Positions 4,622 to 36,480 of a stretch of DNA of 64,000 nucleotides are shown one piece after another. Position numbers and translations under genes: made by a program. This DNA is from an uncultured Planctomycetales bacterium. Its GTDB lineage: Bacteria > Planctomycetota > UBA1135 > JACQFD01. How positions within the stretch are numbered: position 1 is the stretch's first letter; each line of letters opens with the position of its first letter. The notes under the pieces are model-generated. The model saw only the letters and a program-made list of their open reading frames with translations. It ran no database searches and had not been told where the DNA came from. The stretch lies in the NCBI GenBank assembly GCA_964545855.1, contig CAZJHD010000001.1, positions 84,065 to 148,064 of the forward strand, given 5' to 3'.

Positions 4622-4703
4622 GCGGAATGGGGTCAGACCCCTTTTTCGTCTCGCGCCGCGCGCGCGCGGCGCGAGACGGAAAAGGGGTCTGACCCCATTC
4701 CGC
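4622..4703. repeat. Palindromic intergenic element A (82 bp, two 41-nt arms with one T:G mismatch); terminator-like hairpin after the ankyrin gene
   Basis: The left arm gcggaatggggtcagacccctttttcgtctcgcgccgcgcg is directly followed by its reverse complement. The outer arms share GGAATGGGGTCAGACCC with the elements at 26252 and 36449. Confidence 0.85.
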
Positions 4704-8713: not shown

Positions 8714-8838
8714 GGTCGTTGCGTTCCTGGCGTGCTGCCCGTCGGACGCTGGTCCATTGGCTCGATGCGTCGTCCGCGGTGAGGATGGCGACTAGGCCCC
8801 GGCGCGTTTTCGAAGCCGCGCCCCGACAGAATACGGGC

Positions 8839-11808
8839 GTGATCCGCCGCGCCCCCGCCGCTCTCGTCCTCCCGCTCCTCCTCGCCTGCGCCGCCGAGCC
8901 CGCGCCGCGGCCGGCCGCGGAGAGCGCGGCGACGGCCGCGCCGGTGTCCGCGCCCGCGCAGGATCCCCCCGTCGATCTCTTCCCGCTCGTCGATCCCTTC
9001 GTCGGCACCGACGGCACGGGGCACACCTTCCCCGGCGCGAGCGTGCCCTGGGGGATGGTGCAGCTCTCCCCCGACACGCGCACGCAGGGGTGGGATGCGT
9101 GCTCCGGCTACCACGCGAGCCACCGGACGATCCTCGGCTTCTCGCACACGCACTTGAGCGGCACGGGCATCGGCGATCTCGGCGACGTGTTGCTCGTGCC
9201 GACGACGGGGCTGCTGCAGCTCGATCCGGGTCCCGAGGAGGATCCGGCGAGCGGGTATCGGTCCGCCTTCCGAGCCGGCACGGAGCGCGCGGCGCCCGGC
9301 TGGTACCGAGTCCTCCTCGAGGACCACGGCATCGACGCGGAGGTGACGGCGACGGAGCGCTGCGGGATGCATTCCTACCGCTTCCTTCCGGGGTCGAAGC
9401 CGAACGTCCTGATCGACCTGCGGCACGGGATCCAGGACCAGACCCTCGAGGCCTCCGCCGAGATCATCGGCGACCGCGAGATCACGGGCTTCCGCCGCTC
9501 GCGCGGCTGGGCCGCCGATCAGACGGTGTTCTTCGTGGCGCGCTTCAGCGAGCCGGTCCGCGAGAGCGGCCTGCGCGTCGACGGCGAGGTGCGCGAGGGC
9601 GCGCGCGAAGGACGCGGGCGCGACGTGGTCGCCTTCGCGCGCTTCGACCGGCCGGAGGACGGCCGCCTGCTCGTGAAGGTGGGCATCTCGTTCCGGAGCG
9701 TCGAGGGCGCGCGCCGCAACCTCGACGCCGAGATCGCCGGCTTCGACTTCGACGGCGTGCGCGCGCGCGCCGAGGCGCGCTGGCGCGAGGCGCTGTCGCC
9801 CGTCGAGGTCCGCGGCGGGAGCGAGCACGACGCCCGCGTCCTCGCGACGGCGCTCTACCACGCGTTCCTCGCGCCCTGCCTCGCGAGCGACGTGGGGGAG
9901 CCCGACGACTTCCACGTCTTCTCCCTGTGGGACACGTTCCGGGCGCTGCACCCGCTGCTCTCCCTCGTCGCGCCGGAGCGCAACTCCGCCTTCGTCGCGT
10001 CGATGCTCCGCTGGCACGAGCGGACGGGCCGGCTCCCCGTCTGGTCCCTCGCCGGCAACGAGACCGATTGCATGATCGGCTACCACGCGATCCCGGTGAT
10101 CGCCGACGCGTGGGCGAAGGGCGACCGCTCCTTCGACGGCGATCGCGCCCTCGACGCGATGCTCGCGAGCGCGCGCGGCGACCTCGCGGGGCTCCGCTGG
10201 TACCGCGAGCTCGGCTACGTGCCGTCGGACCGGGAGAACGAGTCGGTGTCGAAGACCCTCGAGTACGCCTACGACGACGCCTGCATCGCGCGGATGGCGC
10301 GCGACCTCGGGCGCGAGGACGTCGCCGCGGAGTTCGCGCGACGCGCGAAGGGCTGGGCGCACCTCCTCGATCCGGAGACCGGGTTCTTCCGCGCGCGTCG
10401 CAACGGCGACTGGCTCGAGCCCTTCGACCCGCGCGAGGTGAGCGCCGCCTACACGGAGGCGAACGCCTGGCAGTACTCCTTCTTCGCGCCGCACGACGTG
10501 GAGTCGCTGATGGCGGCCCACGGCGGTCCGGAGCCGTTCACGGCGCGGCTCGACGCGCTCTTCGCGGAGCCCTCGGAGACGACGGGCTGCGAGCAGCTCG
10601 ACATCACGGGGCGGATCGGCCAGTACGCCCACGGGAACGAGCCGAGCCATGCAGTCGCGTTCCTCTACGCCTACGCGGGGCGGCCCGACCGCGTGGCGGA
10701 GCGCGTCGCCGCGATCCGCCGCCTCTACGGCACGGGGCGCGACGGTCTCTGCGGCAACGACGACTGCGGCCAGATGTCGGCGTGGCACGTGCTCGCGGCG
10801 CTCGGCCTCTACGCGCCCGACCCCGCGGAGCCGACCTGGCTGATCGGCACACCGCTCTTCCCCGAGGCGCGCGTGCGCCTCGGCGGCGGACGCACGCTCG
10901 TGATCCGGGCCGAGGGAGTCTCCGAGAAGAACGTCCACGTCCGGTCGGCGACTTGGAACGGGAAGGCGATCACGCGCGCGTGGCTCGCGCACGCGGAGAT
11001 CGCGGGCGGCGGCACGCTCGCGCTCACGATGGGCGACGCGCCGAGCGACTGGGGCACGCGCCCCGAGGACCGCCCGCGCAGCGCGATCGGCGTCGAGATC
11101 ACGCCGAACCCGCGGATCGTGAGCGCCGAGCGCGTCTTCGTCGGATCGACGGAGGCGGCGCTGCGGAGCGACCTGCCGGGCGCGACGATCCGATCCACGC
11201 TCGACGGCACGGTTCCCACGGACGCGTCACCGGTCTACGAGGGGCCGATCCGCATCGAGCGATCGCTGCGGCTGCGCGCCGTGGCCCACGCGCCCGGGCG
11301 CGAACCCTCCTTCGCCGAGGAGGCCGCCTTCGCCTGGCTGCCGGCGCACCGCTCCGTCTCCTACGCGCACGCCTACGCGCCGCAGTACTCCGGCGGCGGG
11401 CGGCTCGCGCTCCTCGACGCGCAGCGCGGCGAGCCGTCGTCCTTCGCGCGATGGCAGGGCTTCGAGGGCGTTCCCTTCGAGGCCGTCGTCGACCTCGGCG
11501 AGTCGCGCGCGCTCGCGCGGGTCGCGGCCGGGTTCCTGCAGGACACGCGCTCCTGGATCTGGCTCCCGACGTCCGTCGAGTTCGCGCTCTCCGACGACGG
11601 CAGGGAGTTCCGCTCCCTCGGCACGATCCCCTGCGACGTCGACGAAGAGACGGTCGGCCCGCTCGTGCGCGACGTGGCCGCCGACGCCGGCGGCGCCCGC
11701 GCGCGCTTCGTGCGCATCGTCGCGACGAGCCGCGGCACCTGCCCGCCGTGGCATCCGGGCGCGGGCTCGAAGTGTTGGGTGTTCGTGGACGAGGTGATCG
11801 CCGAGTAG
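8839..11808 (+). CDS. GH92 family alpha-mannosidase with C-terminal CHB_HEX_C-like and F5/8 type C (discoidin) domains; lipoprotein
   Basis: It lies inside ORF 8611..11808. GTG 8839 gives the lipobox signal (M)IRRAPAALVLPLLLAC, and ATG 8785 is an alternative. GH92 hallmarks: DPFVGTDGTGHTFPGASVPWGMVQLSPDT, GFSHTHLSGTG, YHA.L.P, NEPS(H)..F.Y, CGNDDCGQMSAW. Confidence 0.9.
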   Translation: MIRRAPAALVLPLLLACAAEPAPRPAAESAATAAPVSAPAQDPPVDLFPLVDPFVGTDGTGHTFPGASVPWGMVQLSPDTRTQGWDACSGYHASHRTILGFSHTHLSGTGIGDLGDVLLVPTTGLLQLDPGPEEDPASGYRSAFRAGTERAAPGWYRVLLEDHGIDAEVTATERCGMHSYRFLPGSKPNVLIDLRHGIQDQTLEASAEIIGDREITGFRRSRGWAADQTVFFVARFSEPVRESGLRVDGEVREGAREGRGRDVVAFARFDRPEDGRLLVKVGISFRSVEGARRNLDAEIAGFDFDGVRARAEARWREALSPVEVRGGSEHDARVLATALYHAFLAPCLASDVGEPDDFHVFSLWDTFRALHPLLSLVAPERNSAFVASMLRWHERTGRLPVWSLAGNETDCMIGYHAIPVIADAWAKGDRSFDGDRALDAMLASARGDLAGLRWYRELGYVPSDRENESVSKTLEYAYDDACIARMARDLGREDVAAEFARRAKGWAHLLDPETGFFRARRNGDWLEPFDPREVSAAYTEANAWQYSFFAPHDVESLMAAHGGPEPFTARLDALFAEPSETTGCEQLDITGRIGQYAHGNEPSHAVAFLYAYAGRPDRVAERVAAIRRLYGTGRDGLCGNDDCGQMSAWHVLAALGLYAPDPAEPTWLIGTPLFPEARVRLGGGRTLVIRAEGVSEKNVHVRSATWNGKAITRAWLAHAEIAGGGTLALTMGDAPSDWGTRPEDRPRSAIGVEITPNPRIVSAERVFVGSTEAALRSDLPGATIRSTLDGTVPTDASPVYEGPIRIERSLRLRAVAHAPGREPSFAEEAAFAWLPAHRSVSYAHAYAPQYSGGGRLALLDAQRGEPSSFARWQGFEGVPFEAVVDLGESRALARVAAGFLQDTRSWIWLPTSVEFALSDDGREFRSLGTIPCDVDEETVGPLVRDVAADAGGARARFVRIVATSRGTCPPWHPGAGSKCWVFVDEVIAE

Positions 11809-11890
11809 GGGCGTACGGAGGTTTCTCGGGTCCCCGGCGGGGACGCGTGCCGATTCGTGCCTGCAGATCCTCGCAGCCACGGAGCCGCCC

Positions 11891-13615
11891 ATGCCGCGCC
11901 CCCGCACGTTCGCGCTTCTCGCCCTCGCATCGCTCGCGTCCTCGGCCGCGCTGGCTCCGTCCGTCCAAGCGCAGTTCCCGCCGATCGACTACTCCATCTC
12001 CTACGAGCCGCTCGCGGCCAACGAGCGCTGCGGCACCTCCTTCGCGCCGCTCGCCGACCTCGACGGGGACGGCGAGTGCGACGTCGCCGTGGGCTGCCCC
12101 GGCGCGAACGGCGACTCGGGCCGCGTCGCGATCCTCGACGGCGCCACGATGACGCAGCTCCACGAGATCACGCTGCCGGGCAACCCTGCGAACGCGGGCT
12201 TCGGCAGCTCGCTCGCCTTCGCGGGAGAGCCGGTGGGGCCCGGGAGCGTGCTCCTCCTCGTCGGCGCGCCGGGAATCGGAGTCGGCGGCACGGTCTACGT
12301 CCGTCTCGTGACCGCGACGGGCTCCGTCGATCTCGGGTCGGTCGTCTACGGCGAGGCGGGGGCGGGATGGGGCGACCAGCTCGTCGTCGGCGGCGACCAG
12401 AACGCGGACGGCGTCCCCGACTACGGCGCGATCGCTCCGCTCGCGAACTTCAGCGGCGTCGACTCGGGCTACCTCCAGATGTACGACGGGGCGACGGGCA
12501 ACCCCCTCCTGTTCATGTTCGGGAACCCTCTGGAAAGGCTCTCGCGGTGCGTGGCCACCATCGACGTGAACGAGGACGGTCGCGACGAATGCATCGCGTC
12601 GTTCCTCGGCTACCCGGGCGGGAACGGCCGCGGCGCCGTGTGGGCGTTCTCTCCGACGACGTTCACGTTCCTTCCGAATCCCGTTCTCGGCGCGAACCCC
12701 GGCGACCAGCTCGGAACGGGCCTCGCGGACGTCGGAGACGTCGACTGCAGCGGAGTGAGCGATCTCGGAATCGGCATTCCCGGCTGGGATCAGGGCGGGC
12801 TCACCGATCGCGGCAAAGTGGAGGTGCGGAGCGGGACCGACTTCACGAGCGTGCTCATCGAGGAGGTCGGCGTGCTGGAGGGAGACGAGCTCGGGCACGA
12901 CGTGACGAACTGCGGCGACATGGATGGAGACGGCTTCGACGACTTCTGCGCCACCGCGCCCGGCCACGAGGATCCGCCCGGCACGCCCGTGAACTACGCG
13001 GCGCTGTTCAACGGCCGGACGGGTGAGACGCTCTCCGTCGCGTTCAGCGGCCCGGCCATCTTCTCGAGCGGAATCAAGCTTCCCGGCTTCGCGAGCCCCG
13101 GCGACGCGATCCGCCGCTGCTACGCCCTCGACCCGGAGGACAGCACCGTGCAGCCGAACGGCGGCAGCATCGCCGTCGCGGAGCTCGCGCCGGAGGGCGT
13201 CGAGACCTTCGGCGCCGGCGCCGACGGTTGCGACGGCGCGCACACGATCTTCGTGAGCGACGCACCCCGCATCGGGAGCGTCGACTTTCGGATCCACTCG
13301 GCGCGCGCGCCGAAGCTGACGGTGCAGCTCCTCCTCGTCGCCGACGCGTCGAGCCCCGGGGGCACCGACCCCTTCGGTCTCGGCCTCGATCTCTTCGTCG
13401 ACCTGCTCGGCGCGACGGAGGTGCTCGCCTTCGACCTGCCCGTGAGCCCCTGCGGCCTCGCCGAGGTGCAGGCGCCGATCCCCAACGAGCCGCTGCTCGT
13501 CGGAAAGACCTACACGACGCAATCGATCTTCTTCTGGGCCGGTATCTGCCTCCCGACGCTCTACGGGCTCAGCTCCTCGGGAGGGATGAACCTCACGATC
13601 CAGCCGCCGAGCTGA
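11891..13615 (+). CDS. Secreted FG-GAP (integrin-alpha-like) repeat protein with conserved C-terminal two-Cys module
   Basis: Signal peptide MPRPRTFALLALASLASSAALAPSVQA. It has repeated FG...DxDGDG.xD...G.P motifs (DLDGDGECDVAVGCP, GDQNADGVPDY, IDVNEDGRDE, GDVDCSGVSDLGIG, GDMDGDGFDDF). The last ~141 aa are homologous to the C-termini of the genes ending at 16649 and 21763. Confidence 0.85.
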   Translation: MPRPRTFALLALASLASSAALAPSVQAQFPPIDYSISYEPLAANERCGTSFAPLADLDGDGECDVAVGCPGANGDSGRVAILDGATMTQLHEITLPGNPANAGFGSSLAFAGEPVGPGSVLLLVGAPGIGVGGTVYVRLVTATGSVDLGSVVYGEAGAGWGDQLVVGGDQNADGVPDYGAIAPLANFSGVDSGYLQMYDGATGNPLLFMFGNPLERLSRCVATIDVNEDGRDECIASFLGYPGGNGRGAVWAFSPTTFTFLPNPVLGANPGDQLGTGLADVGDVDCSGVSDLGIGIPGWDQGGLTDRGKVEVRSGTDFTSVLIEEVGVLEGDELGHDVTNCGDMDGDGFDDFCATAPGHEDPPGTPVNYAALFNGRTGETLSVAFSGPAIFSSGIKLPGFASPGDAIRRCYALDPEDSTVQPNGGSIAVAELAPEGVETFGAGADGCDGAHTIFVSDAPRIGSVDFRIHSARAPKLTVQLLLVADASSPGGTDPFGLGLDLFVDLLGATEVLAFDLPVSPCGLAEVQAPIPNEPLLVGKTYTTQSIFFWAGICLPTLYGLSSSGGMNLTIQPPS

Positions 13616-13697
13616 AAGGCGCGCGCGCCGCGCCCCGCGCGAGAAACGAACCGGGCGGAGCGGGGGTGAAGGAGGTGTCCTCCTCCACGAGCTCCCC

Positions 13698-16649
13698 ATG
13701 CATCGCTCGCACGCTCTGCTTCCGGCTGCTGTGCTCCTCCTCGCCTCGCTGGCGCCCGCCGCCCCGGCCCAGCAGGACCTCCTCACCCTGAACGGCGGTT
13801 CCTTCGGCGGTCAGTTCGGCTACGCCGTCGCGAACGCGGGCGACTGCGACGGCGACGGCCGCGACGACGTGGCCGTCGGCAGCCCCTTCGACGACACGGC
13901 CGCCGTCGACCAAGGGCGCGTGCGCTGCTACTCGGGCGCGACGGGAGCGCTCCTCTGGACGGCCGTGGGCGACGCGGCGGGCGACCAGCTGGGCCAGTCG
14001 ATCGCGACGGTCGGTGACGTGAACGGCGACGGGCGCTCCGATCTCGTCGTGGGCGCGCCCTACGCCGATCCGAACGGCGCCAACTCGGGGCGCGTGAAGA
14101 TCCTCTCGGGCGCGAACGGGAGCACGCTCCTCACGCTGAACGGCGTGGCGGCGGGCGACCGATTCGGATGGTCCGTCGCCTACGGAGGCGCGCCCTTCCT
14201 CGGGACGAAGCGGATCGTGGTCGGCGCGCCCTTCCGCGACACGGGCGGCGCCGACGCGGGGAGCGCCTACGTCTACACCGTGACGGGGACGCTCCTGAAG
14301 GAGTTCACGGGGGCGCAGGCGGGCGAGCACCGCGGGTGGAGCGTCGCCGGGGCGCTCGACGTGAACGGCGATCTCAGCCCCGACGTGATCGTCGGAGCAC
14401 CCGACTCCGACGTGATCGCGGCCGACAACGGGCGCGTCTACGTCTTCTCGGGAGCGAGCCCGTACCCGCAGCTCTACGAGCGGCTCGGCGCCGTCGGAGG
14501 AGACCGGTTCGGCTTCTCCGTGGCAGCCCTCGCGAACATCGACAACGACGGATTCGGCGACTTCGTCGTCGGCTCTCCGGGAGCCTCGAGCGGGAACGGG
14601 CGCGTGACGGTCCACTCGGGAGGGAACGCGGGGGCGCAGCTCACGAGCAAGAGCGGAGTGCCCGGCCAGAGCCTCGGCTGGTCCGTGGCGTCGCTCGGCG
14701 ACGTGAACCTCGACGGCCGCACCGATTGGATCGTCGGCGCGCCCGACGATCCGGCCGCCGGAGCCGTGGGCCGAGCGCTCGTCTACTCGGGGCTGACCCA
14801 CGCTCTGCTCACGACGCTCAGCGGCACGAACCCGAACGGTCGCTTCGGCGCCGCCGTCGGCGGCGGAGGCGACGTGAACGGAGACGGGAGGCCCGATCCG
14901 ATCGTCGGCTCCCCCGACGCGGCGATCCTCGGCCCGGAGCAGGGGAACGTCCGCGTCTTCTCGGGGAACGGATTCGGACAGCTCCTCGGGATCGACGGGC
15001 CGACGAACGGCGACCGCCTCGGCGGCGCGCTCTGCTCGATCGGCGACGTGAATGGCGACGGCCGAGCCGACTTCCTCGTGGGGTCGCCGCAGGCGGACCA
15101 CACCTTCTATGTCCTCCTCCAGCCGGTCACCCACGAGAACGCCGGCAGCGTGCGCTGCATCTCCGGCATCGACGGTTCGACGCTCTGGACGATCTGGGGC
15201 GATGGCGAGGGCGACGAACTCGGCGCATCGGTGGCGAGCCTCGGCTACGACTTCAACGTCGACGGGGTGGACGACTTCGTCGTGGGAGCGCCGCAGCGCC
15301 TCACCGCCAGCCCCGCCGGCGGCTACGCCCGTGTCTGCACGGGGCTGAACGGCGCGACGCTCGGCACGGTCGTCGAGGCCACCGCGTCGTCCGAGTTCGG
15401 CGCCGCCGTGGCGAACGCGGGGGATGTGACCGGAGACGGCCGGCCCGAGGCTCTCGTGGGCTCGCCTGGGTTCTCGGGCGGACGCGGGCGCATCGCGGTG
15501 ATGCTCGGTGGATTATTCGTCGAGGTCTCCATCGGGCCCCTGTCGATCGGCCAGCAGGCCGGCGAGCGGTTCGGGAGCTCGGTGGCAGCCCTCGGCGACG
15601 TGAACGGCGACGCCAAGTCGGACCTCCTCGTGGGCGCACCGTCGAACGACGCCGTCGGCGTCGACGCGGGCCGCGCCTACGCGATCTCGACGGGGGGCGC
15701 CGGCTCGCTGCTGTTCACGCTGAGCGGGACGAACGCGGGCGACCTCTTCGGGTCGTCGGTCTGCTCGCTCGGCGACTTCACGGGCGACGACGTGACCGAC
15801 GTCCTCGCCGTCGGAGCCCCCGGCGCCGACTACGCGCCTCTCGGGCTCACCAACTGCGGATCCGTGCGGAGCTTCTTCGTGGTGTCGCTCAGCGACTACT
15901 GGGTCGTCTTCGGCCAGGGCTCTCACGACCTCCTCGGATCGACGATCGCGAACGTTGGCGACTACTCGAACGACGGCTTCGACGACCTGATCGCGGGAGC
16001 TCCCGAGAACTTCTTCTTCTCCCTCGGGACCGGCTATGCGCAGGTCGTGAGCGGCTGGTACGGCGTCGTCTCCTACACCTTCCCGGGGAGCACGCTCGGA
16101 GAAGGCTTCGGCCTCGCCGTGGCGGCGGGCGGCGACGTGGACGCGAACGGCACGCTCGACGCCCTCGTGGGAAGCCCGTTCGCGAGCCCGAGCGGCCCAT
16201 CGTCGGGGCGCGCGAAGGCGATCTCGCTCCAGCCGGCGGGCGTCATCTACTACGGGACCGGCAGCGCGGGCTGCGCGGGAGACCAGAGGCTGCGCAACAG
16301 CATGGCGCCGCGGATCGGGACCTACTGGTTCACCTGGGGCGTGAACAACGCGCCGCCGAGCTCGCTCGGCCTGCTGCTCGCCTCCGACTCGCCGGACTTC
16401 GTCGGGTCGGACCCCTTCGGGATCGGCGTGCCGCTCCTCGTCGACCTGATCTTCGCGACGGAGGTCTACGGCCTCGACATCAACTCGACGGTCGAGGGCT
16501 TCGGGATCGCAGTCACGCCGATCGCGAACAACCCGATCCTCGTCGGCAAGCACTACTACGGTCAGACCCTCTGGGCCTGGGGGAGCTGCCCGCTGCCGCC
16601 CTACGGCTTGAGCACGAGCCACGCGGCAAACATCCAGATCCAGCCGTAG
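13698..16649 (+). CDS. Secreted FG-GAP repeat protein (983 aa, about 14 repeats) with the same C-terminal module
   Basis: Signal peptide MHRSHALLPAAVLLLASLAPAAPA. It has many FG-GAP units (FGYAVANAGDCDGDGRDDVAVGSP, LGQSIATVGDVNGDGRSDLVVGAP, and so on). The C-terminal 138 aa are homologous to 13190-13612 and 21338-21760. Confidence 0.85.
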   Translation: MHRSHALLPAAVLLLASLAPAAPAQQDLLTLNGGSFGGQFGYAVANAGDCDGDGRDDVAVGSPFDDTAAVDQGRVRCYSGATGALLWTAVGDAAGDQLGQSIATVGDVNGDGRSDLVVGAPYADPNGANSGRVKILSGANGSTLLTLNGVAAGDRFGWSVAYGGAPFLGTKRIVVGAPFRDTGGADAGSAYVYTVTGTLLKEFTGAQAGEHRGWSVAGALDVNGDLSPDVIVGAPDSDVIAADNGRVYVFSGASPYPQLYERLGAVGGDRFGFSVAALANIDNDGFGDFVVGSPGASSGNGRVTVHSGGNAGAQLTSKSGVPGQSLGWSVASLGDVNLDGRTDWIVGAPDDPAAGAVGRALVYSGLTHALLTTLSGTNPNGRFGAAVGGGGDVNGDGRPDPIVGSPDAAILGPEQGNVRVFSGNGFGQLLGIDGPTNGDRLGGALCSIGDVNGDGRADFLVGSPQADHTFYVLLQPVTHENAGSVRCISGIDGSTLWTIWGDGEGDELGASVASLGYDFNVDGVDDFVVGAPQRLTASPAGGYARVCTGLNGATLGTVVEATASSEFGAAVANAGDVTGDGRPEALVGSPGFSGGRGRIAVMLGGLFVEVSIGPLSIGQQAGERFGSSVAALGDVNGDAKSDLLVGAPSNDAVGVDAGRAYAISTGGAGSLLFTLSGTNAGDLFGSSVCSLGDFTGDDVTDVLAVGAPGADYAPLGLTNCGSVRSFFVVSLSDYWVVFGQGSHDLLGSTIANVGDYSNDGFDDLIAGAPENFFFSLGTGYAQVVSGWYGVVSYTFPGSTLGEGFGLAVAAGGDVDANGTLDALVGSPFASPSGPSSGRAKAISLQPAGVIYYGTGSAGCAGDQRLRNSMAPRIGTYWFTWGVNNAPPSSLGLLLASDSPDFVGSDPFGIGVPLLVDLIFATEVYGLDINSTVEGFGIAVTPIANNPILVGKHYYGQTLWAWGSCPLPPYGLSTSHAANIQIQP

Positions 16650-16655
16650 GGATAG

Positions 16656-16726
16656 TGGCCCCGAATCATTCACTTCCCCGGAGGTCCGCCGCGTGCGCAC
16701 CCCGGGGCGTGAATGATTCGGGGCCA
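16656..16726. repeat. Inverted repeat / terminator-like hairpin (18-bp perfect arms, 35-nt GC-rich spacer with an internal CCCCGG/CCGGGG pairing)
   Basis: tggccccgaatcattcac (16656-16673) is the exact reverse complement of gtgaatgattcggggcca (16709-16726). The element starts 7 nt after the TAG of the FG-GAP gene. Confidence 0.75.
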
Positions 16727-16901
16727 GTTTCCGTCGCCCGTCCTCGGTTCGGCGGCGGGCGGCTCGAGTCCCCGCTTGCGCCGCTCTCGGATGCAGGGGT
16801 AGCGTGCTCCGGTCCTGGACGCTTCCCGCCCGCTTCGTGCGGGGCGATCCGGGAGCCGGCGCCCGCGAGGCGCCCGAGGGTGTGATGAGTCACTGGAGCG
16901 C

Positions 16902-19151
<2,250 letters not shown>

Positions 19152-19168
19152 TCCGGGAGGGCGCTGCG

Positions 19169-21763
19169 ATGATCCCTTCGACGCAACACCTTCCTTCCCC
19201 TCGTCGCGACGCAGGATCTTTGCGATGCCCTCGGCTGCTCCTCACGGCCGGAGCCGTGGCGTTCGCCGCGGCTCCGGCCGCCTTCCCCCAGGGCGGCAAC
19301 ACCGCGGCGCGCGAGCTGCCCGCCTTCGCCCGACAGCCCGTCCGCTTCGTCGAGCGGCCGCTCGCCGCGCCCGGCGCGCCGCGCTTCGAGGTGGCGGCGC
19401 CAGGAGGCGCTGCGGCGCTGCGGTCTGGCGCGATCGCTCTCGCGATCCCGGGCGATCGCGAGGGATCCTTCGAGCGCGTCGTCCTCTCCTTCGAGGGCGC
19501 CGATCCCGCAGCGCGCCTCGAGGGCGAGGAGCCCGACGGAGCGCGGCATCACGATCTCCGGGGCGGACGCCAAGAAGAGTGGACGCCTCGGCGGCCGAGC
19601 TTCCGGGTCGTCGGGTGCGCGGGGCTCTACCCCGGAGTCGATCTGGTCCTGCGCGAGGAGCTGGGCCAGCTCGAATACGACCTCCTCCTCGCTCCGGGCG
19701 CCGAGCCGAGCGCGATCGTCGTCCGGGTCGACGGCGCCGACTCCATCGCCCGCGATCGGGATGGCTCGTTGTCGATCCGAGTCGGCGGCCGGACGATTCG
19801 GCAGTCTCCGCCGAAGACCTTCGCCCTCGCCGCGGGCGGCGCGCGACACGAGATCCCGTCGGCGGTCCGGATCGTCGACTCCACGCGGTTCGGGTTCGAG
19901 CTGGGCTTGCGCGATCCGGAGAGCGCCCTCGTCATCGACCCCGGAATCGTCTTCGCCACCTACGTCGGGGGTGCCTCCCTCGACGACATCTACGACGTGG
20001 CCGTCGGGAGCGACGGCGCCGCCTACCTGACGGGGCGAATGGGGAGCGGCTTCACGACGACTCCGGGCGCCTTCCAGCCGACCTACCATGGCGGGCCGCT
20101 CTTCCAGAGCGATGCCTTCGCTCTGAAGCTCCAGCCGAACGGCGCAAGCGCCACCTACGCCACCTATCTCGGAGGGAGCGGCGACGACATCGGCTACGGC
20201 ATCGGCCTCTCCCCGCAGGCCGAGGCCATCGTCTACGCGGTGACCGGCTCTTTCGACCTGCCGCTCACACCGAACCCCTACAGCGTCCAGCCCGACGGAG
20301 GCTACGTGGCGAAGCTCTCGCCCGACGGCTCGGCCCTCGTCTTCGCGACGACCTTCGTCGGCCACACGTGGTCGACCGCATCCATGGAAGTGGACGCGCA
20401 GGGCTTTCCGTACGTCGCGGGACTCGTCGCGCCTCCCCTCAACTTCGCGACCCCCGGCGCCTTCCAGACGGTGCCCACTGGAGGCAACGCCGACGGCTTC
20501 GTCGCCAAGATGAACCTCGACGGCTCGGCCCTCGTCTACGCCACGTACTTGAGCGCCTACCCGGGAGCCTGGATCTACGACATCGCCCTCGACGCGCAGA
20601 AGGCGGTCTACGCCGTGGGGGAGACCTCCTCGACGACGTTCCCGGTGACGCCCGGCGCATTCCAGACGGTGAACGCGCCGACGAGCATTCTCGGGGGAAG
20701 CGTCGGCTTCGTGGCGAAGCTCTCCCCCCAGGGAGACTCGCTCCACTACTGCACCTACCTCGGCGGCACGATGCAGATCGATCGCGCGAATACGGTCTCG
20801 GTCGATGCGCAGGGGTCTGCGGTCGTGGGCGGCTTCACCAGCTCCGCAGACTTCCCCGTCACGGGCGGAACTCTCGACCCCGTCTGGTCCCAGCCTCAGC
20901 GCACCTTTGTCGCGCGGTTGAGTCCTGCGGGGGACGCGCTGATCTACTCGACCTTCATCCCACCGCCAACCAACCTCTCACAGTACGTCGGAGTGGGGTC
21001 GCTCCATGCCGAACTGGAGGGCGCAATCCTTACAGGAGTCTCGACCGTGGGATTGCCCTACACGCCCGATGCATTCGACACGACCGTCGTGGGCTATCAA
21101 GGCGATGCATTCGTCGCGCGCCTGAGCCCCCTCGGCACGAGTCTCACGTTCGCGAGCTATCTCGGAGGGTCGGGCGCGGACTTCGCGCGTTCCGTTGCCG
21201 TCGACAGCACGGGCGCGGTCTACGCCGCTGGATTCACCGACTCCAAGAACTTCCCCGTGAACGGCCACGCCTACGACAAGGTCCTCGAAGGGACCTCGTG
21301 GGACGGCTTCCTCGCGAAGATCACGGTCCCGAAGCTCCCCTTCGGCATCGCCTCCTACGGCACCGGTACGCCCGGCTGCCTCGGGCCGCAGCGCCTCTGG
21401 GTCGAGACGCCGCTCCACCTCGGGCAGAAGGCCTTCGTCTTCGGCTGCGACGCGGCGCCGATCGGCGGCTCGGGCGGAGTGCTGCTGAGCGACCTGCAGG
21501 ACCTCGCCGGCTCCGATCCCTTCTTCCTCGGCATCGCGCTCCACGTCGACCTCTTCTCGCCGAACGTCGCGAGCGTGCCGCTCTTCGCGCCGCCGCACTA
21601 CGCGGGCATGGCGGCGAACACGGTCGTGATCCCGAGCGACTCCGCCCTCCTCGGGAAGACCTTCTACGCGCAGGCCCTCTGGCTCTGGCCGCAGGGCGCC
21701 TGCACTCCGTCGCTCTACGGCCTCAGCACCTCGAACGGCCTCGCGATGACGGTGATCCCGTGA
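19169..21763 (+). CDS. Secreted SBBP beta-propeller repeat protein (paralogue) with the C-terminal two-Cys module
   Basis: ATG at codon 155 of ORF 18707..21763, 17 nt after the previous stop. The signal-like N-terminus is MIPSTQHLPSPRRDAGSLRCPRLLLTAGAVAFAAAPAAFPQ. It has a DUF7948-like region and many SBBP units (ATYVGGASLDDIYDVAV, ATYLGGSGDDIGYGIGL, CTYLGGTMQIDRANTVSV, ASYLGGSGADFARSVAV). Its C-terminal 141 aa are homologous to the FG-GAP C-termini. Confidence 0.85.
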   Translation: MIPSTQHLPSPRRDAGSLRCPRLLLTAGAVAFAAAPAAFPQGGNTAARELPAFARQPVRFVERPLAAPGAPRFEVAAPGGAAALRSGAIALAIPGDREGSFERVVLSFEGADPAARLEGEEPDGARHHDLRGGRQEEWTPRRPSFRVVGCAGLYPGVDLVLREELGQLEYDLLLAPGAEPSAIVVRVDGADSIARDRDGSLSIRVGGRTIRQSPPKTFALAAGGARHEIPSAVRIVDSTRFGFELGLRDPESALVIDPGIVFATYVGGASLDDIYDVAVGSDGAAYLTGRMGSGFTTTPGAFQPTYHGGPLFQSDAFALKLQPNGASATYATYLGGSGDDIGYGIGLSPQAEAIVYAVTGSFDLPLTPNPYSVQPDGGYVAKLSPDGSALVFATTFVGHTWSTASMEVDAQGFPYVAGLVAPPLNFATPGAFQTVPTGGNADGFVAKMNLDGSALVYATYLSAYPGAWIYDIALDAQKAVYAVGETSSTTFPVTPGAFQTVNAPTSILGGSVGFVAKLSPQGDSLHYCTYLGGTMQIDRANTVSVDAQGSAVVGGFTSSADFPVTGGTLDPVWSQPQRTFVARLSPAGDALIYSTFIPPPTNLSQYVGVGSLHAELEGAILTGVSTVGLPYTPDAFDTTVVGYQGDAFVARLSPLGTSLTFASYLGGSGADFARSVAVDSTGAVYAAGFTDSKNFPVNGHAYDKVLEGTSWDGFLAKITVPKLPFGIASYGTGTPGCLGPQRLWVETPLHLGQKAFVFGCDAAPIGGSGGVLLSDLQDLAGSDPFFLGIALHVDLFSPNVASVPLFAPPHYAGMAANTVVIPSDSALLGKTFYAQALWLWPQGACTPSLYGLSTSNGLAMTVIP

Positions 21764-21764
21764 C

Positions 21765-24700
21765 GTGAGCGGCTCACGGCGGCGTTCGGCGGCCGGGCAC
21801 CGTCGGAGTCCCTCGGGAGTGGCCGAAGCCGCCGTCCGATGCGACGCTGTCGCCTTGCGCGCCCCGCGACTGCTCCTCGTCCTCGCCGGTACCGCCTGCG
21901 TCGTCTCGAGCGTCCTCTCCTGCTCGGGGGCCGCGGGCGCGGGAGGCGAGGATCTCGCGCGGGAGTTCGACCCGGCCTCCGTCGCGCGCGGCGAGTTGCT
22001 CCTGGAGGAGCTGCAGTGCATCGCGTGCCACGCGGCGCCGCCGTCGACCGCGCCGCGCCTGCGTGCCCGCTCCGCGCCGGACCTCGCGGAGGTCGGAGCG
22101 CGAACCACGCCCGCCGGATTGCGGCGCTGGCTCGCGGCGCCCCACGCGGCGAAGCCGGGCACGCCGATGCCCGATCTCCTGGCGTCCCTCGACGGGGTCG
22201 AGCGCGAGGAGGCGCTCGACGCGCTCGTGCACCACCTCGCGTCGCGGGGCGGCCCGCTCGCACCGGAGCCGCTCGCCCTCGACGGCGGCGCCTTCGAGCG
22301 AGGTCGGCGGCTCTACCACGCGGTCGGCTGCGTCGCCTGCCACGCGCCGCTGGAGCCGGCGCTCGCGCTCGCCGACGCGAGCCGTCGCGCGGACTTCGAC
22401 GGGGAGGACGCGCCGGGGACGAACGGCACGCTGCTCGCCGAGGGGGCGCCCGCGACGCCGTCGCCCTCGGTGCCCCTCGGCGACCTCGCGGGGAGCACGA
22501 CGCCGCGCGCCCTCGCGGCGTTCCTCCGCGATCCGCTGCGCGCACGGCCGTCGGGCCGCATGCCGTCGCTCGGGCTCACGGAGGGCGAGGCGAGCGACCT
22601 CGCCCACTACCTGATCGCGAAGCCGGTCCTCGACGCGGGCCGCGTGGGTGCTGCGCCGGGGCTCCTCTACGACTACTTCGAGGACGCCTTCGACGAGGAC
22701 GCGCCCGACTTCGCGAAGCGCGCGGCCGCGAGGACCGGCATCGCGCCCGACTTCGGCGAACTGCCGGAGCACCGCGAGGACGGCTTCGGATTCCGATTCC
22801 ACGGCTGGCTCGACGTGCCGGCGGAGGGTCTCTGGCGCTTCGAGACGGAGTCCGACGACGGCTCGCGGCTCCTCGTCGACGGCCAGCTCGTCGTGCGCAA
22901 CGACGGGCACCATCCGATGCAGCGCGCGCGGGGCGAGGTGCGTCTCGACGCGGGGCCGCACGCGATCGAGGTGACCTTCTTCGAGGGCGCCGGCCAGCAG
23001 GGTCTGCGCGTGCGCTGGGAGGGGCCAAGCGTCGCGATGGAGCCGATCCCCGCGCGCCGTCTCTCGCACCGCACCATCGAGGCGCCGCGCGCGGAGCCCT
23101 TCGCGGTCGACGCTTCGAAGGCCGCGCGCGGCGGCGTGCTGCTGGCGTCGCTCGGCTGCGTCGCCTGCCATCCCCGGGGCGCGGAGCCCGCCGGCGATCC
23201 GAACCGCGGGCCGGCGCTGGCGGACCTCGATCCGCGGGAGGGCTGCCTCGACGCCACCGGGAGCACGAGCGCTCCGCGCTTCGCGCTCACGGACGCGGAC
23301 CGGGCCGCACTCCGCGGAGCGATCCGCGCACACGCCTCCGGCGACGCGTTCGCGGCGCACGTCGAGCCGCACGTCGCGCCACAGCTCGCGCCGCGCGACG
23401 CGCTCGCGCGCGAACTCGATCGCTTCCGGTGCGGCGCGTGCCACGAGCGCGACGGCGCCGGCGGCCCCGCGCCCGACCGCCGCGGGTACTTCCAGGCGGA
23501 TGCGAAGGCGGAGCTCGGCGACGAAGGGCGTTTCCCGCCGCGGCTCGACGGCATCGGCGCGAAGCTCCGCCGCGCGTGGCTCGAGGAGGTCCTCGTCGAA
23601 GGAGCCGTCGTGCGCCCGACGATGCGCACGCGCATGCCGCGCTTCGGCCGCGCGAACGTGGGGCACTTGCCGGCGCTCCTCGCCGACGCCGACGGCGCGC
23701 CGCCGGAGGAGCGCGAGGCGCACTTCGATCTCGAGGCGATCGAGGCGGGCCGCCGGCTCGTCGGCACGAAGGGCGGGCTCGGCTGCATCCAGTGCCACGG
23801 ATTCGCGGGCGTCGAGTCCCTCGGGATGAACACCGTGGACCTCGCCGGCGTGACGGAGCGTCTCTCGCGCGCCTGGTTCACGAAGCTCCTCGCGGATCCC
23901 GCGTCCGTGAACCTGCTCACGCGCATGCCGGTCTACTGGGTGAACGGCAGGAGCCCGGTGAAGGACCTCTACGACGGCGATCCGTCGCGGCAGATCGACG
24001 CGATGTGGACGTACCTCGCCCTCGGGCGCTCGGCGCCGCTGCCGAAGGGGCTCCAGGTCTCCGGCGCCGAGTACGAGCTGGAGCCGATCGAAGAGCCGAT
24101 CCTCTGCGGCGTCTTCATGGAGGGAGTGAGCCCGCGCACGCTCCTCGTGGGATATCCCGAGCGCACGCACGTCGCCTTCGACGTGGAGAGCTCGCGGCTC
24201 GCGAAGGTCTGGCGCGGGCGCTTCTTCGACGCGCGGGGGACGTGGCACGGACGCGCGGGGAAGCTGGAGCGGCCGCCGGGCGACGACGTGCTCGACCTCG
24301 CGCCGGGCGCGCCCCTGGCGATCCTCGGACGCGCGGAGGCGGAGTGGCCGGCCGGCTCGGGACGCGACGCGGGGCTCCGGCCCCGAGGGAGGACCTGGGA
24401 CGAGCTGCGGCGCCCCGTCTTCCAGTACCGGCTCGGCGAGACGCTGATCACGGAGCTGGCCGTGCCGATGCTCCGGCCCGACGGGAGCTGGATCGCGAGG
24501 ACCTTCGTCCTCCGTGCGCAGGAGCGCGTCGCCGGTCTCTGGCACCGCGCCGCCGTCGGCCGCGACATCGTGCGCGTCGAGGAGTCGACCGGTCGCGCGG
24601 CCTTCCGCGTCGACGGCCGCGCGACGTTCCGCGTGCTCGGGCCCTCCGCCGCGGAGGCGCGGGTGGTCGCGACGGCCGCGGGCGCCGAGCTCCGCGTTCC

Positions 24701-24782
24701 GGTCGCCTTCGAGCGGAGTCCCTACGGCGGGCCCGACCACGACCTCTGGGTCGCGTCCCTGCAGCTGGAGTTCACCTGGTGA
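21765..24782 (+). CDS. Multihaem c-type cytochrome (5 CxxCH) with embedded PA14 domain
   Basis: CIACH, CVACH, CVACH, CGACH and CIQCH were read in the translation. The PA14-like block is GLLYDYFED...FGFRFHGWLDVPAEGLWRFETESDDGSRLLVDGQLVV...VTFFEGAGQQGLRVRWEGP. The track start is GTG 21765, 1 nt after the SBBP stop. An alternative TTG 21855 gives the lipobox signal (M)RAPRLLLVLAGTACVVSSVLSC. Confidence 0.85.
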   Translation: MSGSRRRSAAGHRRSPSGVAEAAVRCDAVALRAPRLLLVLAGTACVVSSVLSCSGAAGAGGEDLAREFDPASVARGELLLEELQCIACHAAPPSTAPRLRARSAPDLAEVGARTTPAGLRRWLAAPHAAKPGTPMPDLLASLDGVEREEALDALVHHLASRGGPLAPEPLALDGGAFERGRRLYHAVGCVACHAPLEPALALADASRRADFDGEDAPGTNGTLLAEGAPATPSPSVPLGDLAGSTTPRALAAFLRDPLRARPSGRMPSLGLTEGEASDLAHYLIAKPVLDAGRVGAAPGLLYDYFEDAFDEDAPDFAKRAAARTGIAPDFGELPEHREDGFGFRFHGWLDVPAEGLWRFETESDDGSRLLVDGQLVVRNDGHHPMQRARGEVRLDAGPHAIEVTFFEGAGQQGLRVRWEGPSVAMEPIPARRLSHRTIEAPRAEPFAVDASKAARGGVLLASLGCVACHPRGAEPAGDPNRGPALADLDPREGCLDATGSTSAPRFALTDADRAALRGAIRAHASGDAFAAHVEPHVAPQLAPRDALARELDRFRCGACHERDGAGGPAPDRRGYFQADAKAELGDEGRFPPRLDGIGAKLRRAWLEEVLVEGAVVRPTMRTRMPRFGRANVGHLPALLADADGAPPEEREAHFDLEAIEAGRRLVGTKGGLGCIQCHGFAGVESLGMNTVDLAGVTERLSRAWFTKLLADPASVNLLTRMPVYWVNGRSPVKDLYDGDPSRQIDAMWTYLALGRSAPLPKGLQVSGAEYELEPIEEPILCGVFMEGVSPRTLLVGYPERTHVAFDVESSRLAKVWRGRFFDARGTWHGRAGKLERPPGDDVLDLAPGAPLAILGRAEAEWPAGSGRDAGLRPRGRTWDELRRPVFQYRLGETLITELAVPMLRPDGSWIARTFVLRAQERVAGLWHRAAVGRDIVRVEESTGRAAFRVDGRATFRVLGPSAAEARVVATAAGAELRVPVAFERSPYGGPDHDLWVASLQLEFTW

Positions 24783-26227
24783 TCGCCCTCGCGCTCTCGG
24801 TCCTCGCCGCCACGATGCAGGGCGCATCGGCGTCGGAGGCCGACTTCTACCGCATCGTCACGGTCGGCGTGCCGAAGGAGATCGTCCTCGAGGTGAGCGG
24901 TCTCGCGTTCCTGCCGGACGGGAAGCTCCTGGCGGCGACGCGCCGCGGCGACGTGTGGACGCTCGACCGGCCGCTCGCGCCGGAGGGGAAGGGGATCGCC
25001 TTCGGGAAGTTCACGGACGGGCTCCAGGAGCCGCTCGGCCTCCTCCTGCATGACGGGTGGATCTGGTGCGCGCAGCGCGGCGAGCTCTCGCGCATGCGCG
25101 ACGTCGACGGCGACGGTCGCGTCGACGAGCTCGAGACCGTCTGCGACGACTGGCGCATCAGCGGGAACTACCACGAGTACACGTTCGGTCCGGTCCTCGG
25201 CGGCGACGGCGCGCTCTGGATGACGACGAACAAGCCCTTCGGCGACGAGCCCTTCGGCCGCGTCGATTGGCGCGGCTGGGCGATCTCCGTCGACGCCGGC
25301 GGGCGCATGACGCCGCGCGCCTGCGGGCTGCGCTCGCCGTCGGGGATCGGCACGAGCCCCGAAGGCGTCGTCTTCTACTCCGACAACCAGGGCGAGTGGT
25401 GCGGCACGAGCAAGCTCGCGGCGCTCGAGGACGGCGACTTCCACGGCCACCCGCACGGTCTCTTCTCGGCGCGGCGCCCCGAGTGGCGCTTCGGGCATCC
25501 GGGCGATCCGCCCGACGGGAAGCCGATCCCCGAGGTGGCCCGCGCGATGCCGTCTCTGAGGCTGCCGGCGGTGTGGTTCCCCTACGACGAGATGGGGCGC
25601 TCCGCGTCGGGCTTCGTCTGGGACACGACGGGCGGGACGTTCGGCCCCTTCGCGGGGCAGGTCTTCATCGGCGACCAGTACTCCTCCGAGGTGATGCGCG
25701 TCTCGCTGGAGAAGGTGCGCGGCCGCTGGCAGGGCGCGTGCCATCCCTTCGTGCGCGGGCTCGCCTGCGGCATCGTGCGGCTCGCCTTCGCGCCCGACGG
25801 GTCCCTCTTCGCCGGGCTCACGAACCGCGGCTGGCCCTCCGTGGGGCCGAAGGGCGAGGGGCTCCAGCGGATCCTGTGGACGGGGAAGACGCCCTTCGAG
25901 GTGCACACGATGAGCGCGCGCGCCGACGGCTTCGAGCTGCGGTTCACGGAGCCCGTCGACGCGGCGTCGGCGGCGGACGCCGCGAGCTACGCCATGGAGA
26001 GCTGGACCTACCGGCTCCACAGCGACTACGGCAGCCCGAAGATCGACGAAGCGAAGCCCGCGATCGTCGCGGCGGAGGTCTCCGGCGACGGTGCGACGGT
26101 GCACCTGCGCGTCGACGGTCTGCGCGAGGGCTACGTCCACGCGCTGCGGCTGCCGGGCGTCCGTTCGCGCGCCGGCGCGCCGCTGCTGCATCCGGTCGCC
26201 TACTACACGCTGAACGCGATTCCCTGA
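24779..26227 (+). CDS. Secreted beta-propeller protein related to glucose/sorbosone-dehydrogenase-like 'putative membrane-bound dehydrogenase' domains of PVC bacteria
   Basis: These are the last 482 codons of ORF 21839..26227. GTG 24779 overlaps the cytochrome stop (GTGA). The signal is (M)IALALSVLAATMQGASA. Motifs: GLAFLPDGKLLAATRRGDVW, LGLLLHDGWIW, RDVDGDGRVDE, YHEYTFGPV, GLRSPSGIG.SPEG..FYSDNQGEW. Confidence 0.75.
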   Translation: MIALALSVLAATMQGASASEADFYRIVTVGVPKEIVLEVSGLAFLPDGKLLAATRRGDVWTLDRPLAPEGKGIAFGKFTDGLQEPLGLLLHDGWIWCAQRGELSRMRDVDGDGRVDELETVCDDWRISGNYHEYTFGPVLGGDGALWMTTNKPFGDEPFGRVDWRGWAISVDAGGRMTPRACGLRSPSGIGTSPEGVVFYSDNQGEWCGTSKLAALEDGDFHGHPHGLFSARRPEWRFGHPGDPPDGKPIPEVARAMPSLRLPAVWFPYDEMGRSASGFVWDTTGGTFGPFAGQVFIGDQYSSEVMRVSLEKVRGRWQGACHPFVRGLACGIVRLAFAPDGSLFAGLTNRGWPSVGPKGEGLQRILWTGKTPFEVHTMSARADGFELRFTEPVDAASAADAASYAMESWTYRLHSDYGSPKIDEAKPAIVAAEVSGDGATVHLRVDGLREGYVHALRLPGVRSRAGAPLLHPVAYYTLNAIP

Positions 26228-26251: not shown

Positions 26252-26354
26252 CCCGGGAATGGGGTCAGACCCATCTCTCCCGCCCCCTTCTCGCGGCGCG
26301 CGCCGCGCGCCGCGGGGATGGGGCGGGAGAGATGGGTCTGACCCCATTCCCGGG
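26252..26354. repeat. Palindromic intergenic element B (103 bp; 35-bp perfect arms plus a largely self-complementary GC core) between convergent genes
   Basis: cccgggaatggggtcagacccatctctcccgcccc (26252-26286) is the exact reverse complement of 26320-26354. It shares GGAATGGGGTCAGACCC with element A. Confidence 0.85.
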
Positions 26355-36467: not shown

Positions 36468-36480
36468 CCCCTTTCCCGGG
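36449..36480. repeat. Palindromic element C (32-bp minimal copy: CCCGGGAAACGGGGTCTGACCCCTTTCCCGGG)
   Basis: It shares the CCCGGGAA..GGGGTC(A/T)GACCCC arm sequence with element B. It lies between the convergent apbE and PHP-hydrolase genes, and the apbE TGA (36465-36467) is the centre of the core. Confidence 0.75.

Follow-up and report, generated by a model that had tools for sequence, protein, structure and literature searches.

Quinohaemoprotein-type dehydrogenases have as their hallmark an obligatory pairing with a multi-haem cytochrome. In acetic acid bacteria, membrane-associated quinohaemoprotein or flavoprotein complexes such as the type III alcohol, gluconate and fructose dehydrogenases combine a catalytic subunit with a multi-haem cytochrome c subunit, the two being encoded by adjacent, co-translated genes. 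The fungal quinohaemoprotein pyranose dehydrogenase CcPDH joins an AA8 cytochrome b, an AA12 propeller with pyrroloquinoline quinone (PQQ) and a CBM1 module (PMC4332668, PMC6881789, PMC5960967). Here, we compare such systems with a 14-kb run of six genes, g1 to g6, found in a 64-kb stretch of DNA from an uncultured Planctomycetales bacterium (contig CAZJHD010000001.1; hereafter the window). The last two genes of the run encode a penta-haem cytochrome c with an internal PA14 domain (g5) and an exported six-bladed propeller (g6). We are highly confident that the run is a mosaic in which g5-g6 is the sole conserved unit. The reading as a whole, in which this mosaic includes a sugar-dehydrogenase/cytochrome cassette, is the one we prefer and consider reasonably probable, while for its mechanistic part, the transfer of electrons from a dehydrogenase to the cytochrome, we judge the balance to be about even.

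Three kinds of genes make up the run, namely an FG-GAP pair (g1 and g2), a DUF7948 plus SBBP pair (g3 and g4) and the autonomous, conserved g5-g6 cassette. The products of the FG-GAP and SBBP genes are surface or secreted proteins in their own right, and they lie beside the cassette only in this lineage. We regard the run as a mosaic because the gene order is absent from related loci, a strong hairpin follows g2, the genes fall into different classes of GC content at third codon positions (GC3), and a shared C-terminal domain occurs on g1, g2 and g4 only. The genes, and the PA14 domain within g5, are as follows:

11891..13615, plus strand: g1, a secreted FG-GAP propeller protein of 574 amino acids (Pfam FG-GAP/FG-GAP_3; signal peptide in the translation)
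13698..16649, plus strand: g2, a secreted FG-GAP protein of 983 amino acids (Pfam FG-GAP, 3.3e-78)
16902..19151, plus strand: g3, a DUF7948 and SBBP repeat protein (Pfam DUF7948, 4.4e-43; SBBP, 4.5e-18)
19169..21763, plus strand: g4, a secreted DUF7948 and SBBP repeat protein of 864 amino acids (Pfam)
21855..24782, plus strand: g5, a penta-haem class-I-type cytochrome c with PA14 (five CxxCH motifs; Pfam Cytochrom_C and PA14)
22656..23051, plus strand: the PA14 domain of g5 (Pfam PF07691, 45.6 bits against a cut-off of 24)
24779..26227, plus strand: g6, an exported six-bladed propeller (DUF7133) of 482 amino acids (sequence, Pfam and AlphaFold2 (AF2) model)

A genome scan with g5 identified at least 595 relatives, mainly in metagenome-assembled genomes of Planctomycetota and Verrucomicrobiota. 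For comparison we used 84 loci with g5 homologues, most of them with flanks of up to 10 kb; upstream sequence of at least 3 kb was available in 51 of the 84 and of at least 6 kb in 43, and the related loci together amount to 1.35 Mb. Adjacency was counted where the downstream sequence reached at least 1.5 kb, as it did in 67 of the related loci. In 63 of these 67, the next same-strand gene was a g6 homologue, and phmmer detected a g6 homologue in 72 of all 84 loci. The 4-nt GTGA overlap that links g5 to g6 in the window (24779-24782), where the GTG start of g6 runs into the TGA stop of g5, recurs in the closest clade (L002, L003, L006, L008, L010 and L026). Annotated gene calls give a 4-nt overlap in L001 and L002, one of 7 nt in L089 and direct abutment in L090. 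By their overlap, shared strand and conserved arrangement, g5 and g6 are a translationally coupled two-gene operon. An initial annotation of the window had noted the GTGA overlap and proposed that cytochrome and propeller form a coupled pair; the sequence confirms the former, and the overlap and the adjacency in 63 loci confirm the latter.

The same annotation had presented all six genes as one array and suggested that conservation of the gene order in relatives be checked. This order is not conserved. An SBBP/DUF7948 gene was found within 10 kb of a g5 homologue in none of the 84 loci, and an FG-GAP gene in only one (L089), 6 kb downstream and beyond an opposite-strand gene. In the closest relatives, a divergently transcribed gene lies immediately upstream of g5, so g5-g6 stands alone there. 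All-against-all clustering of flanking open reading frames (ORFs) returned g6 as the sole recurrent neighbour; the next most frequent neighbours were DUF1553/DUF1501, a pair that is ubiquitous in the Planctomycetes-Verrucomicrobia-Chlamydiae (PVC) group and occurred in 11-14 of the 84 loci. This DUF1553 (PSD1)/DUF1501 pair precedes g5-g6 in a minority of relatives, for example at positions 1-3134 of L010. Approached from the other side, a single-protein metagenome scan with g4 yielded six loci with distant g4 relatives (L083-L088), none of which has g5 or g6 nearby.

Four g5 relatives have no g6 partner, and two of them, L068 and L048, carry an N-terminal extension of ~300 amino acids. The extension in L068 (Thalassoglobus neptunius, 8978-12652) is a DUF1080/3-keto-disaccharide-hydrolase-like domain, and the one in L048 (8323-11577) has no family match. 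Homologues of g5 of at least 1200 amino acids with PF06439 were also present among the matches listed. The extensions in these partnerless relatives hint at a modular exchange of the sugar-acting part. The idea that loci without g6 hold an alternative partner enzyme was rejected, since what lies downstream in them (PAD_porph, AAA_21, FabA, GDSL) is unrelated.

Because the G+C content of the window is 72%, ORFs alone are weak evidence for genes, and the reading frames were settled by a codon-position GC plot. From ~8.8 to 26.2 kb, low second-position followed by high third-position GC indicates coding on the plus strand, and between 11891 and 26227 the frame switches coincide exactly with the gene borders of the initial annotation. 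The coordinates of g1, g2, g4 and g6 are also identical to the NCBI gene calls. Plot and Pfam together thus support six plus-strand genes with the domain labels first assigned to them, and the 17-nt gap reported between g3 and g4 is present in the sequence. Other parts of the description fared less well. Counted from g0, the next gene upstream, to g6, the successive gaps are 82, 82, 252 (393 with the NCBI start of g3 at 17043), 17, then 1, 55 or 91 depending on the start of g5, and -4 nt. The widest gap lies in the middle of the array, between g2 and g3, where it holds the strong hairpin, so the gaps do not shrink along the array as had been claimed. The term 'giant' was likewise an overstatement for exoproteins of 574, 983, 702-749 and 864 amino acids, the third value being 749 for g3 from GTG 16902 and 702 from the NCBI start GTG 17043. 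All products had been called exported; nearly all do carry export signals. A conventional signal peptide is lacking in g3.

The two kinds of repeat proteins appear to have arisen by duplication within each kind. In blastp alignments g1 and g2 are 31% identical and g3 and g4 34.5%, which marks them on sequence grounds as two old tandem paralogue pairs; g2 contains 13 FG-GAP stretches, or roughly two propellers. GC3 is 0.92 in g1 and g2, 0.875 in g3 and g4, 0.935 in g5 and 0.961 in g6, compared with 0.954 in g0.

How closely g5 follows g4 depends on its start codon, for which there are three options: TTG 21855, 91 nt after g4; GTG 21819, the NCBI start, after 55 nt; and GTG 21765, after 1 nt. 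In 27 homologues, a median of 44 residues precedes the first haem cysteine, and the three starts would place 54, 66 and 84 residues there, respectively. Translation from TTG 21855 also gives an 'MRAP...' N-terminus that resembles the closest homologue, P0002. From these comparisons, TTG 21855 appears to be the most likely start of g5 and GTG 21765 the least likely. As the homologues favour TTG 21855, the g4-g5 gap is most likely 91 nt, and the 1-nt gap via GTG 21765 that was proposed in the initial annotation is not borne out. That annotation had itself stated that its case would weaken if the cytochrome began at TTG 21855 behind a mapped promoter; this start is indeed the favoured one.

Two inverted repeats stand out in the region by their predicted stability:

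16650..16732, plus strand: a strong stem-loop directly 3' of the g2 stop (fold -64.4 kcal/mol, z = -7.7; inverted repeat I4)
26252..26354, strandless: a near-perfect palindrome, each arm 51 nt long (fold -130.7 kcal/mol, z = -13.7; inverted repeat I1)

None of 200 shuffled sequences was as stable as the hairpin at 16650-16732, which is a candidate intrinsic terminator or RNA-stabilising element that would split g1-g2 from g3-g6. A terminator role can only be inferred, since the U-tail is weak (AGUUUCC). The palindrome at 26252-26354, which is unrelated in sequence to this hairpin, resembles repetitive extragenic palindromic (REP) elements. It lies in the convergent gap between g6 and a minus-strand resistance-nodulation-division (RND) efflux operon that closes the block downstream. 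Its arm motif GGAATGGGGTCAGACCC recurs at 4624-4701, within the palindrome at 4622-4703, and at 36460-36476, and the REP-like elements that share it sit at three gene ends: after g6, between an ankyrin gene and a major facilitator superfamily (MFS) gene, and after an ApbE gene. We consider the element after g6 a candidate terminator for both directions of transcription, at which the g3-g6 block would end. Rfam matches of this palindrome to miRNA precursors were rejected because they were below threshold and reflected the hairpin shape.

Stable hairpins were found only after g2 and g6, with none at the g0-g1, g1-g2, g3-g4 (19130-19180) or g4-g5 (21750-21860) junctions. A sigma-70 promoter scan gave no sites and a terminator scan a single, intragenic one, scans that are uninformative at 72% GC. 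The initial annotation had named independent terminators or promoters between the genes as evidence against coupling, and the strong hairpin after g2 is a candidate for one; the g3-g4 and g4-g5 junctions have no hairpin. We consider g0/g1/g2 one likely transcription unit and g3 to g6 the next, the latter with a possible internal promoter in the 91 nt upstream of g5.

Since no hairpin separates g3 to g6, their co-transcription in this genome is possible, and this leads to the first of three alternatives to our preferred reading. Under it, g3, g4, g5 and g6 would form a lineage-specific operon with a promoter in the 16650-16900 gap, and the genes would be co-regulated with or without physical interaction of their products. 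The confinement of stable hairpins to the ends of this block, together with gaps of 17, at most 91 and -4 nt, fits such an operon. The arrangement is not conserved, however, and GC3 separates g3 and g4 (0.875) from g5 (0.935) and g6 (0.961). Moreover, the 91 nt before g5 suffice for the promoter that the stand-alone cassette must carry in relatives, and the promoter scan does not help, being uninformative at this GC content. We therefore see the lineage-specific operon as possible, if on the unlikely side.

Returning to the cassette as an autonomous unit, g5 has the features of an electron-transfer protein. An alignment of 28 homologues shows its five CxxCH motifs (at 22017, 22329, 23157, 23430 and 23784) and four Met-Pro motifs as invariant or nearly invariant. 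Conserved Met-Pro motifs suggest His/Met haem ligation and hence high-potential electron transfer. The PA14 domain (residues 298-429, numbered from GTG 21765) sits between haem domains 2 and 3 and was found in all 120 homologues among the matches listed. A conserved C-terminal region of ~240 amino acids had no family match. The N-terminus is a lipoprotein-like signal peptide, so judged by its sequence g5 is exported and probably lipid-anchored. The homologues are ~900-950 amino acids long, contain PA14 and cytochrome c domains, and are 34-51% identical to g5 over 85-98% of its length. In all 61 loci that were tabulated, the last codon before the g5 stop ends in G, which fits the consensus C-terminal tryptophan of the family.

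Database names say little about this protein. Public records label members of the g5 and g6 families only generically, as 'c-type cytochrome' and 'glucose/arabinose dehydrogenase'. The score of g5 against the NCBIfam SoxX equivalog model (TIGR04485) is 65.5 bits, above the cut-off of 61. We rejected this assignment, as the score sums two generic cytochrome c domains and g5 has ~975-1005 amino acids and five haems, whereas SoxX is a mono-haem protein of ~150 amino acids that pairs with SoxA in a sox cluster. No sox gene turned up in the Pfam scan of the window's long ORFs. Some g5 homologues have faint CCP_MauG or DHOR matches. Literature searches on the combination of PA14, cytochrome and Planctomycetes and on the 'membrane-bound dehydrogenase domain' returned nothing relevant.

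The AF2 model of g6 (predicted local distance difference test score (pLDDT) 91.2, predicted TM score (pTM) 0.91) is a six-bladed propeller followed by a C-terminal β-sandwich. A Foldseek search of the PDB ranked PQQ sugar dehydrogenases at the top: 3a9g, 2ism, 3das, 1c9u (soluble glucose dehydrogenase, sGDH) and 2g8s (Escherichia coli Asd). These bacterial enzymes matched with E-values of 2e-14 to 1e-10 and target-normalised TM scores of 0.65-0.72. The fungal AA12 structures 6jt5, 6i1q and 6h7t matched as well, with E-values overall from 2e-14 to about 1e-8. Further down were HHIP, gluconolactonases, regucalcin and NHL propellers. The label 'dehydrogenase-like propeller' that g6 had first been given thus holds at the level of the predicted fold.

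Sequence profiles place g6 less clearly. Its match to DUF7133 (PF23500) scored 28.6 bits against a cut-off of 27 and covered only profile positions 79-209 of 385, and with TIGR02604 it reached 22.9 bits against a cut-off of 122. PF23500 is nonetheless present in nearly all of the 120 g6 homologues listed. Homologues of g6 are 55-63% identical, and some are labelled by JGI and NCBI as glucose/arabinose or PQQ-dependent sugar dehydrogenases; some also carry weak precomputed matches to PF07995, the Pfam GSDH family. A sequence search of the PDB with the g6 profile returned matches to NHL-type 'Pizza' repeats and a marginal one to 2ism (E = 0.33). As the fold matches and the family profile does not, membership of g6 in the GSDH family is not established.

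In g6, His132, Arg185 (followed by Ser186) and Arg350 are invariant in 40 homologues. In sGDH and CcPDH, the active site comprises a catalytic histidine (His144 in sGDH), Arg228/Asn229 at the O5/O4 atoms of PQQ, and, nearer the C-terminus, Arg406/408, which bind the PQQ carboxylates (PMC6881789). The three g6 residues follow the same order as this catalytic histidine and the PQQ-binding arginines.

The gene structure, the conservation of the pair, the fold and the haem motifs are results of the analysis, whereas catalysis, cofactor, substrate and direction of electron flow are what we infer for the cassette. In this proposal, g6 would oxidise a sugar or glycan-derived substrate in the periplasm, and electrons would pass from g6 to the haem chain of g5 and on to the aerobic respiratory chain. 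PA14 may hold the complex on a carbohydrate or select one. The stop/start overlap would fix the stoichiometry of the two proteins, which, being translationally coupled by it, would be made in fixed proportion.

Several observations weigh against this proposal and the reading that contains it. At the sequence level, Pfam GSDH (PF07995) has no match to g6 at E ≤ 0.01, and hhalign of the g6 family with the GSDH-domain protein P0244 gave a probability of 1.4%. The fold is found also in non-enzymes (HHIP) and in lactonases, and His132, Arg185 and Arg350 are likened to PQQ-site residues by order and motif resemblance only. No pqq genes were seen within the window. We found no experiment on any family member, and a literature search gave no papers on DUF7133. 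In addition, neither a hairpin nor a recognisable promoter lies between g4 and g5.

These points leave room for a second alternative, in which g6 is a ligand-binding or lactonase-type propeller and g5 has another redox role, such as peroxide detoxification or the oxidation of metals or sulfur compounds, with PA14 serving localisation. The HHIP, gluconolactonase, regucalcin and NHL matches and the failed GSDH tests speak for it on the side of g6, and the SoxX score above cut-off and the faint CCP_MauG or DHOR matches on the side of g5. PQQ sugar dehydrogenases nevertheless rank first among the structures, and the invariant histidine and arginines are typical of a catalytic pocket. The SoxX score, as said, adds up two generic cytochrome c domains, here in a protein of 1005 amino acids (from GTG 21765), and the scan of the window's long ORFs revealed no accompanying sox gene. 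The obligatory pairing with a multi-haem cytochrome is, moreover, what marks dehydrogenases of the quinohaemoprotein type. We hold this alternative to be improbable and retain the sugar-dehydrogenase/cytochrome reading of the cassette.

The gene next upstream of the run lies on the same strand, outside the array of the initial annotation:

8785..11808, plus strand: g0, a GH92 alpha-mannosidase-type lipoprotein (Pfam Glyco_hydro_92, 2.3e-153; NCBIfam TIGR01180, 604 bits)

Its C-terminal domains are CHB_HEX_C and F5/8-type-C (discoidin), and the NCBI gene set contains exactly the same protein. On the same strand, the segment 4610-11808 encodes a nucleoside/H+-symporter-type MFS transporter, a Gfo/Idh/MocA oxidoreductase (about 6600-7892) and the GH92 mannosidase. 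This neighbourhood has a flavour of glycan use and might relate to g1-g2 more than g5-g6 does.

The third alternative, proposed at the outset, is that all six genes are one functional unit in which adhesin-like propellers position a redox enzyme on a surface or glycan; the common strand, the export signals on nearly all products, the short g3-g4, g4-g5 and g5-g6 junctions and the glycan-related surroundings (GH92 with discoidin, Gfo/Idh/MocA, MFS) agree with it, yet it is largely refuted by SBBP genes in none and FG-GAP genes in one of the 84 related loci, and with the divergent gene directly upstream of g5 in the closest relatives, the strong hairpin and 252-393 nt gap after g2, the likely g5 start 91 nt beyond g4, the GC3 differences between the gene pairs and the lack of the g1, g2 and g4 C-terminal domain in g5 and g6, we regard it as very improbable. 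The view that the four repeat proteins work together with the redox pair is accordingly unsupported. As an adhesin-redox super-operon is not a conserved system, this headline claim should be dropped.

The C-terminal domain that distinguishes g1, g2 and g4 was delimited by alignment and is ~135 amino acids long:

13193..13612, plus strand: shared C-terminal domain of g1
16227..16646, plus strand: shared C-terminal domain of g2
21341..21760, plus strand: shared C-terminal domain of g4

The three copies are 34-42% identical (g1 and g2, 42%) and have two conserved cysteines; g3, g5 and g6 lack the domain. It had no Pfam match even at E ≤ 10 and no NCBIfam match. In a library of 1.84 billion proteins, 1,327 cluster representatives matched it, 850 of them at E ≤ 1e-10, and almost always at the extreme C-terminus. 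The passenger domains in these proteins include FG-GAP, SBBP, GSDH, subtilase S8, Ig/β-helix, sortilin-BNR and DUF922. A word-indexed search with the profile of the domain returned mostly short fragments, and the domain is absent from the 1.35 Mb of other PVC loci. Its AF2 model is a β-sandwich (pLDDT 96.5) that had no neighbour in the PDB below E = 1e-3. Known C-terminal sorting domains, among them the type IX secretion system C-terminal domain (T9SS CTD), PEP-CTERM and LPXTG, were rejected, as none matched in profile or fold. With a distribution typical of such domains, it has, judging from sequence and model, the look of a sorting or anchoring domain that has yet to be described.

The leader of g3 contains a simple repeat:

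16950..16985, plus strand: a (TC)18 dinucleotide tract, read as (SL)n in the g3 leader from GTG 16902

From GTG 16902, the tract encodes (SL)n in frame, with LLSA|EGG after it, and occupies the position expected for the hydrophobic core of a signal peptide. The NCBI start at 17043 bypasses the tract and so leaves g3 without a signal peptide. In a simulation of the reading frames, repeat numbers divisible by three gave the GTG 16902 leader, those with a remainder of two gave an alternative upstream leader from GTG 16804 or ATG 16885, and those with a remainder of one left just the product from GTG 17043, which has no leader. Among dinucleotide repeats of at least eight units, the tract is the only one in the 64-kb window, and the 1.35 Mb of related loci contain none. 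A long simple repeat in the 5' leader whose length sets the reading frame is what characterises contingency genes, and g3 has one. The tract is thus a candidate slipped-strand phase-variation switch for g3, a suggestion that draws on analogy with described genes. In Helicobacter pylori, oipA and its relatives are phase-variable outer-membrane protein genes with CT repeats in the 5' signal-peptide region (PMC10564699). The likeness concerns the g3 tract only: in both, a surface-protein gene has a CT/TC repeat within its leader-coding part, and the frame depends on the number of repeat units. Unlike oipA, the g3 tract belongs to a 72% GC, free-living-type Planctomycetota-like host, a leader still results in two of the three frames, and the repeat was read in one sequence.

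What remains of the array is a widely distributed two-gene module that occurs in at least 595 genomic instances and is annotated in databases, with a function predicted from sequence and structural models. If this prediction of a carbohydrate-tethered dehydrogenase wired to respiration is true, glycan use in these polysaccharide-degrading phyla would gain an oxidative step outside the cytoplasm. A bolder extension is that the cassette is the PVC-wide counterpart of the fungal cellobiose and pyranose dehydrogenases (CDH/PDH), a quinohaemoprotein that would bind glycans, oxidise sugars derived from polysaccharides in an extracytoplasmic location and be wired to respiration or to other redox enzymes there, and that in this lineage it has been captured into the transcript of an SBBP surface protein under phase-variable (TC)n control. 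In this combined form, we find the idea doubtful. The CT-repeat leader in a planctomycete-type surface protein and the C-terminal domain with its ~1,300 clusters may hold more specialist interest than the array itself.

Among described systems, the soluble PQQ sugar dehydrogenases (sGDH, Asd/YliI) are the best structural matches to g6. They are periplasmic or exported, and their active-site residues occur in an order comparable to that of the invariant histidine and arginines of g6. They differ in that g6 is outside the reach of GSDH by Pfam and hhalign and has an extra C-terminal β-sandwich of ~100 amino acids, and in that no dedicated penta-haem partner gene accompanies the known enzymes. 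Such a partner is a feature of the dehydrogenase complexes of acetic acid bacteria, where a dedicated multi-haem (His/Met) cytochrome c subunit feeds the respiratory chain. Their catalytic folds, however, are eight-bladed PQQ or FAD types, and their cytochromes have three haems and no PA14.

CcPDH appears to be the nearest functional analogue of g5-g6, as it combines a six-bladed PQQ-type propeller with modules for haem electron transfer and carbohydrate binding. It carries its single b-type haem and its CBM1 on one polypeptide, whereas g5-g6 consists of two polypeptides with five c-type haems and a PA14 domain inside the cytochrome. The two have no detectable sequence similarity, and the use of PQQ by g6 is putative. 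The closest bacterial relatives of the pair are the fused PVC-type haem-binding CxxCH proteins (TIGR02604/DUF7133, HEAT, cytochrome c). These share the propeller family, the link to c-type haem and the phyla, but each of them is one fused chain with HEAT repeats and a single haem domain, in contrast to the separate 482-amino-acid g6 with its penta-haem/PA14 partner. In one locus the two designs meet, as a fused PVC-type haem-binding protein adjoins the g5 homologue of L038 (5259-8957).

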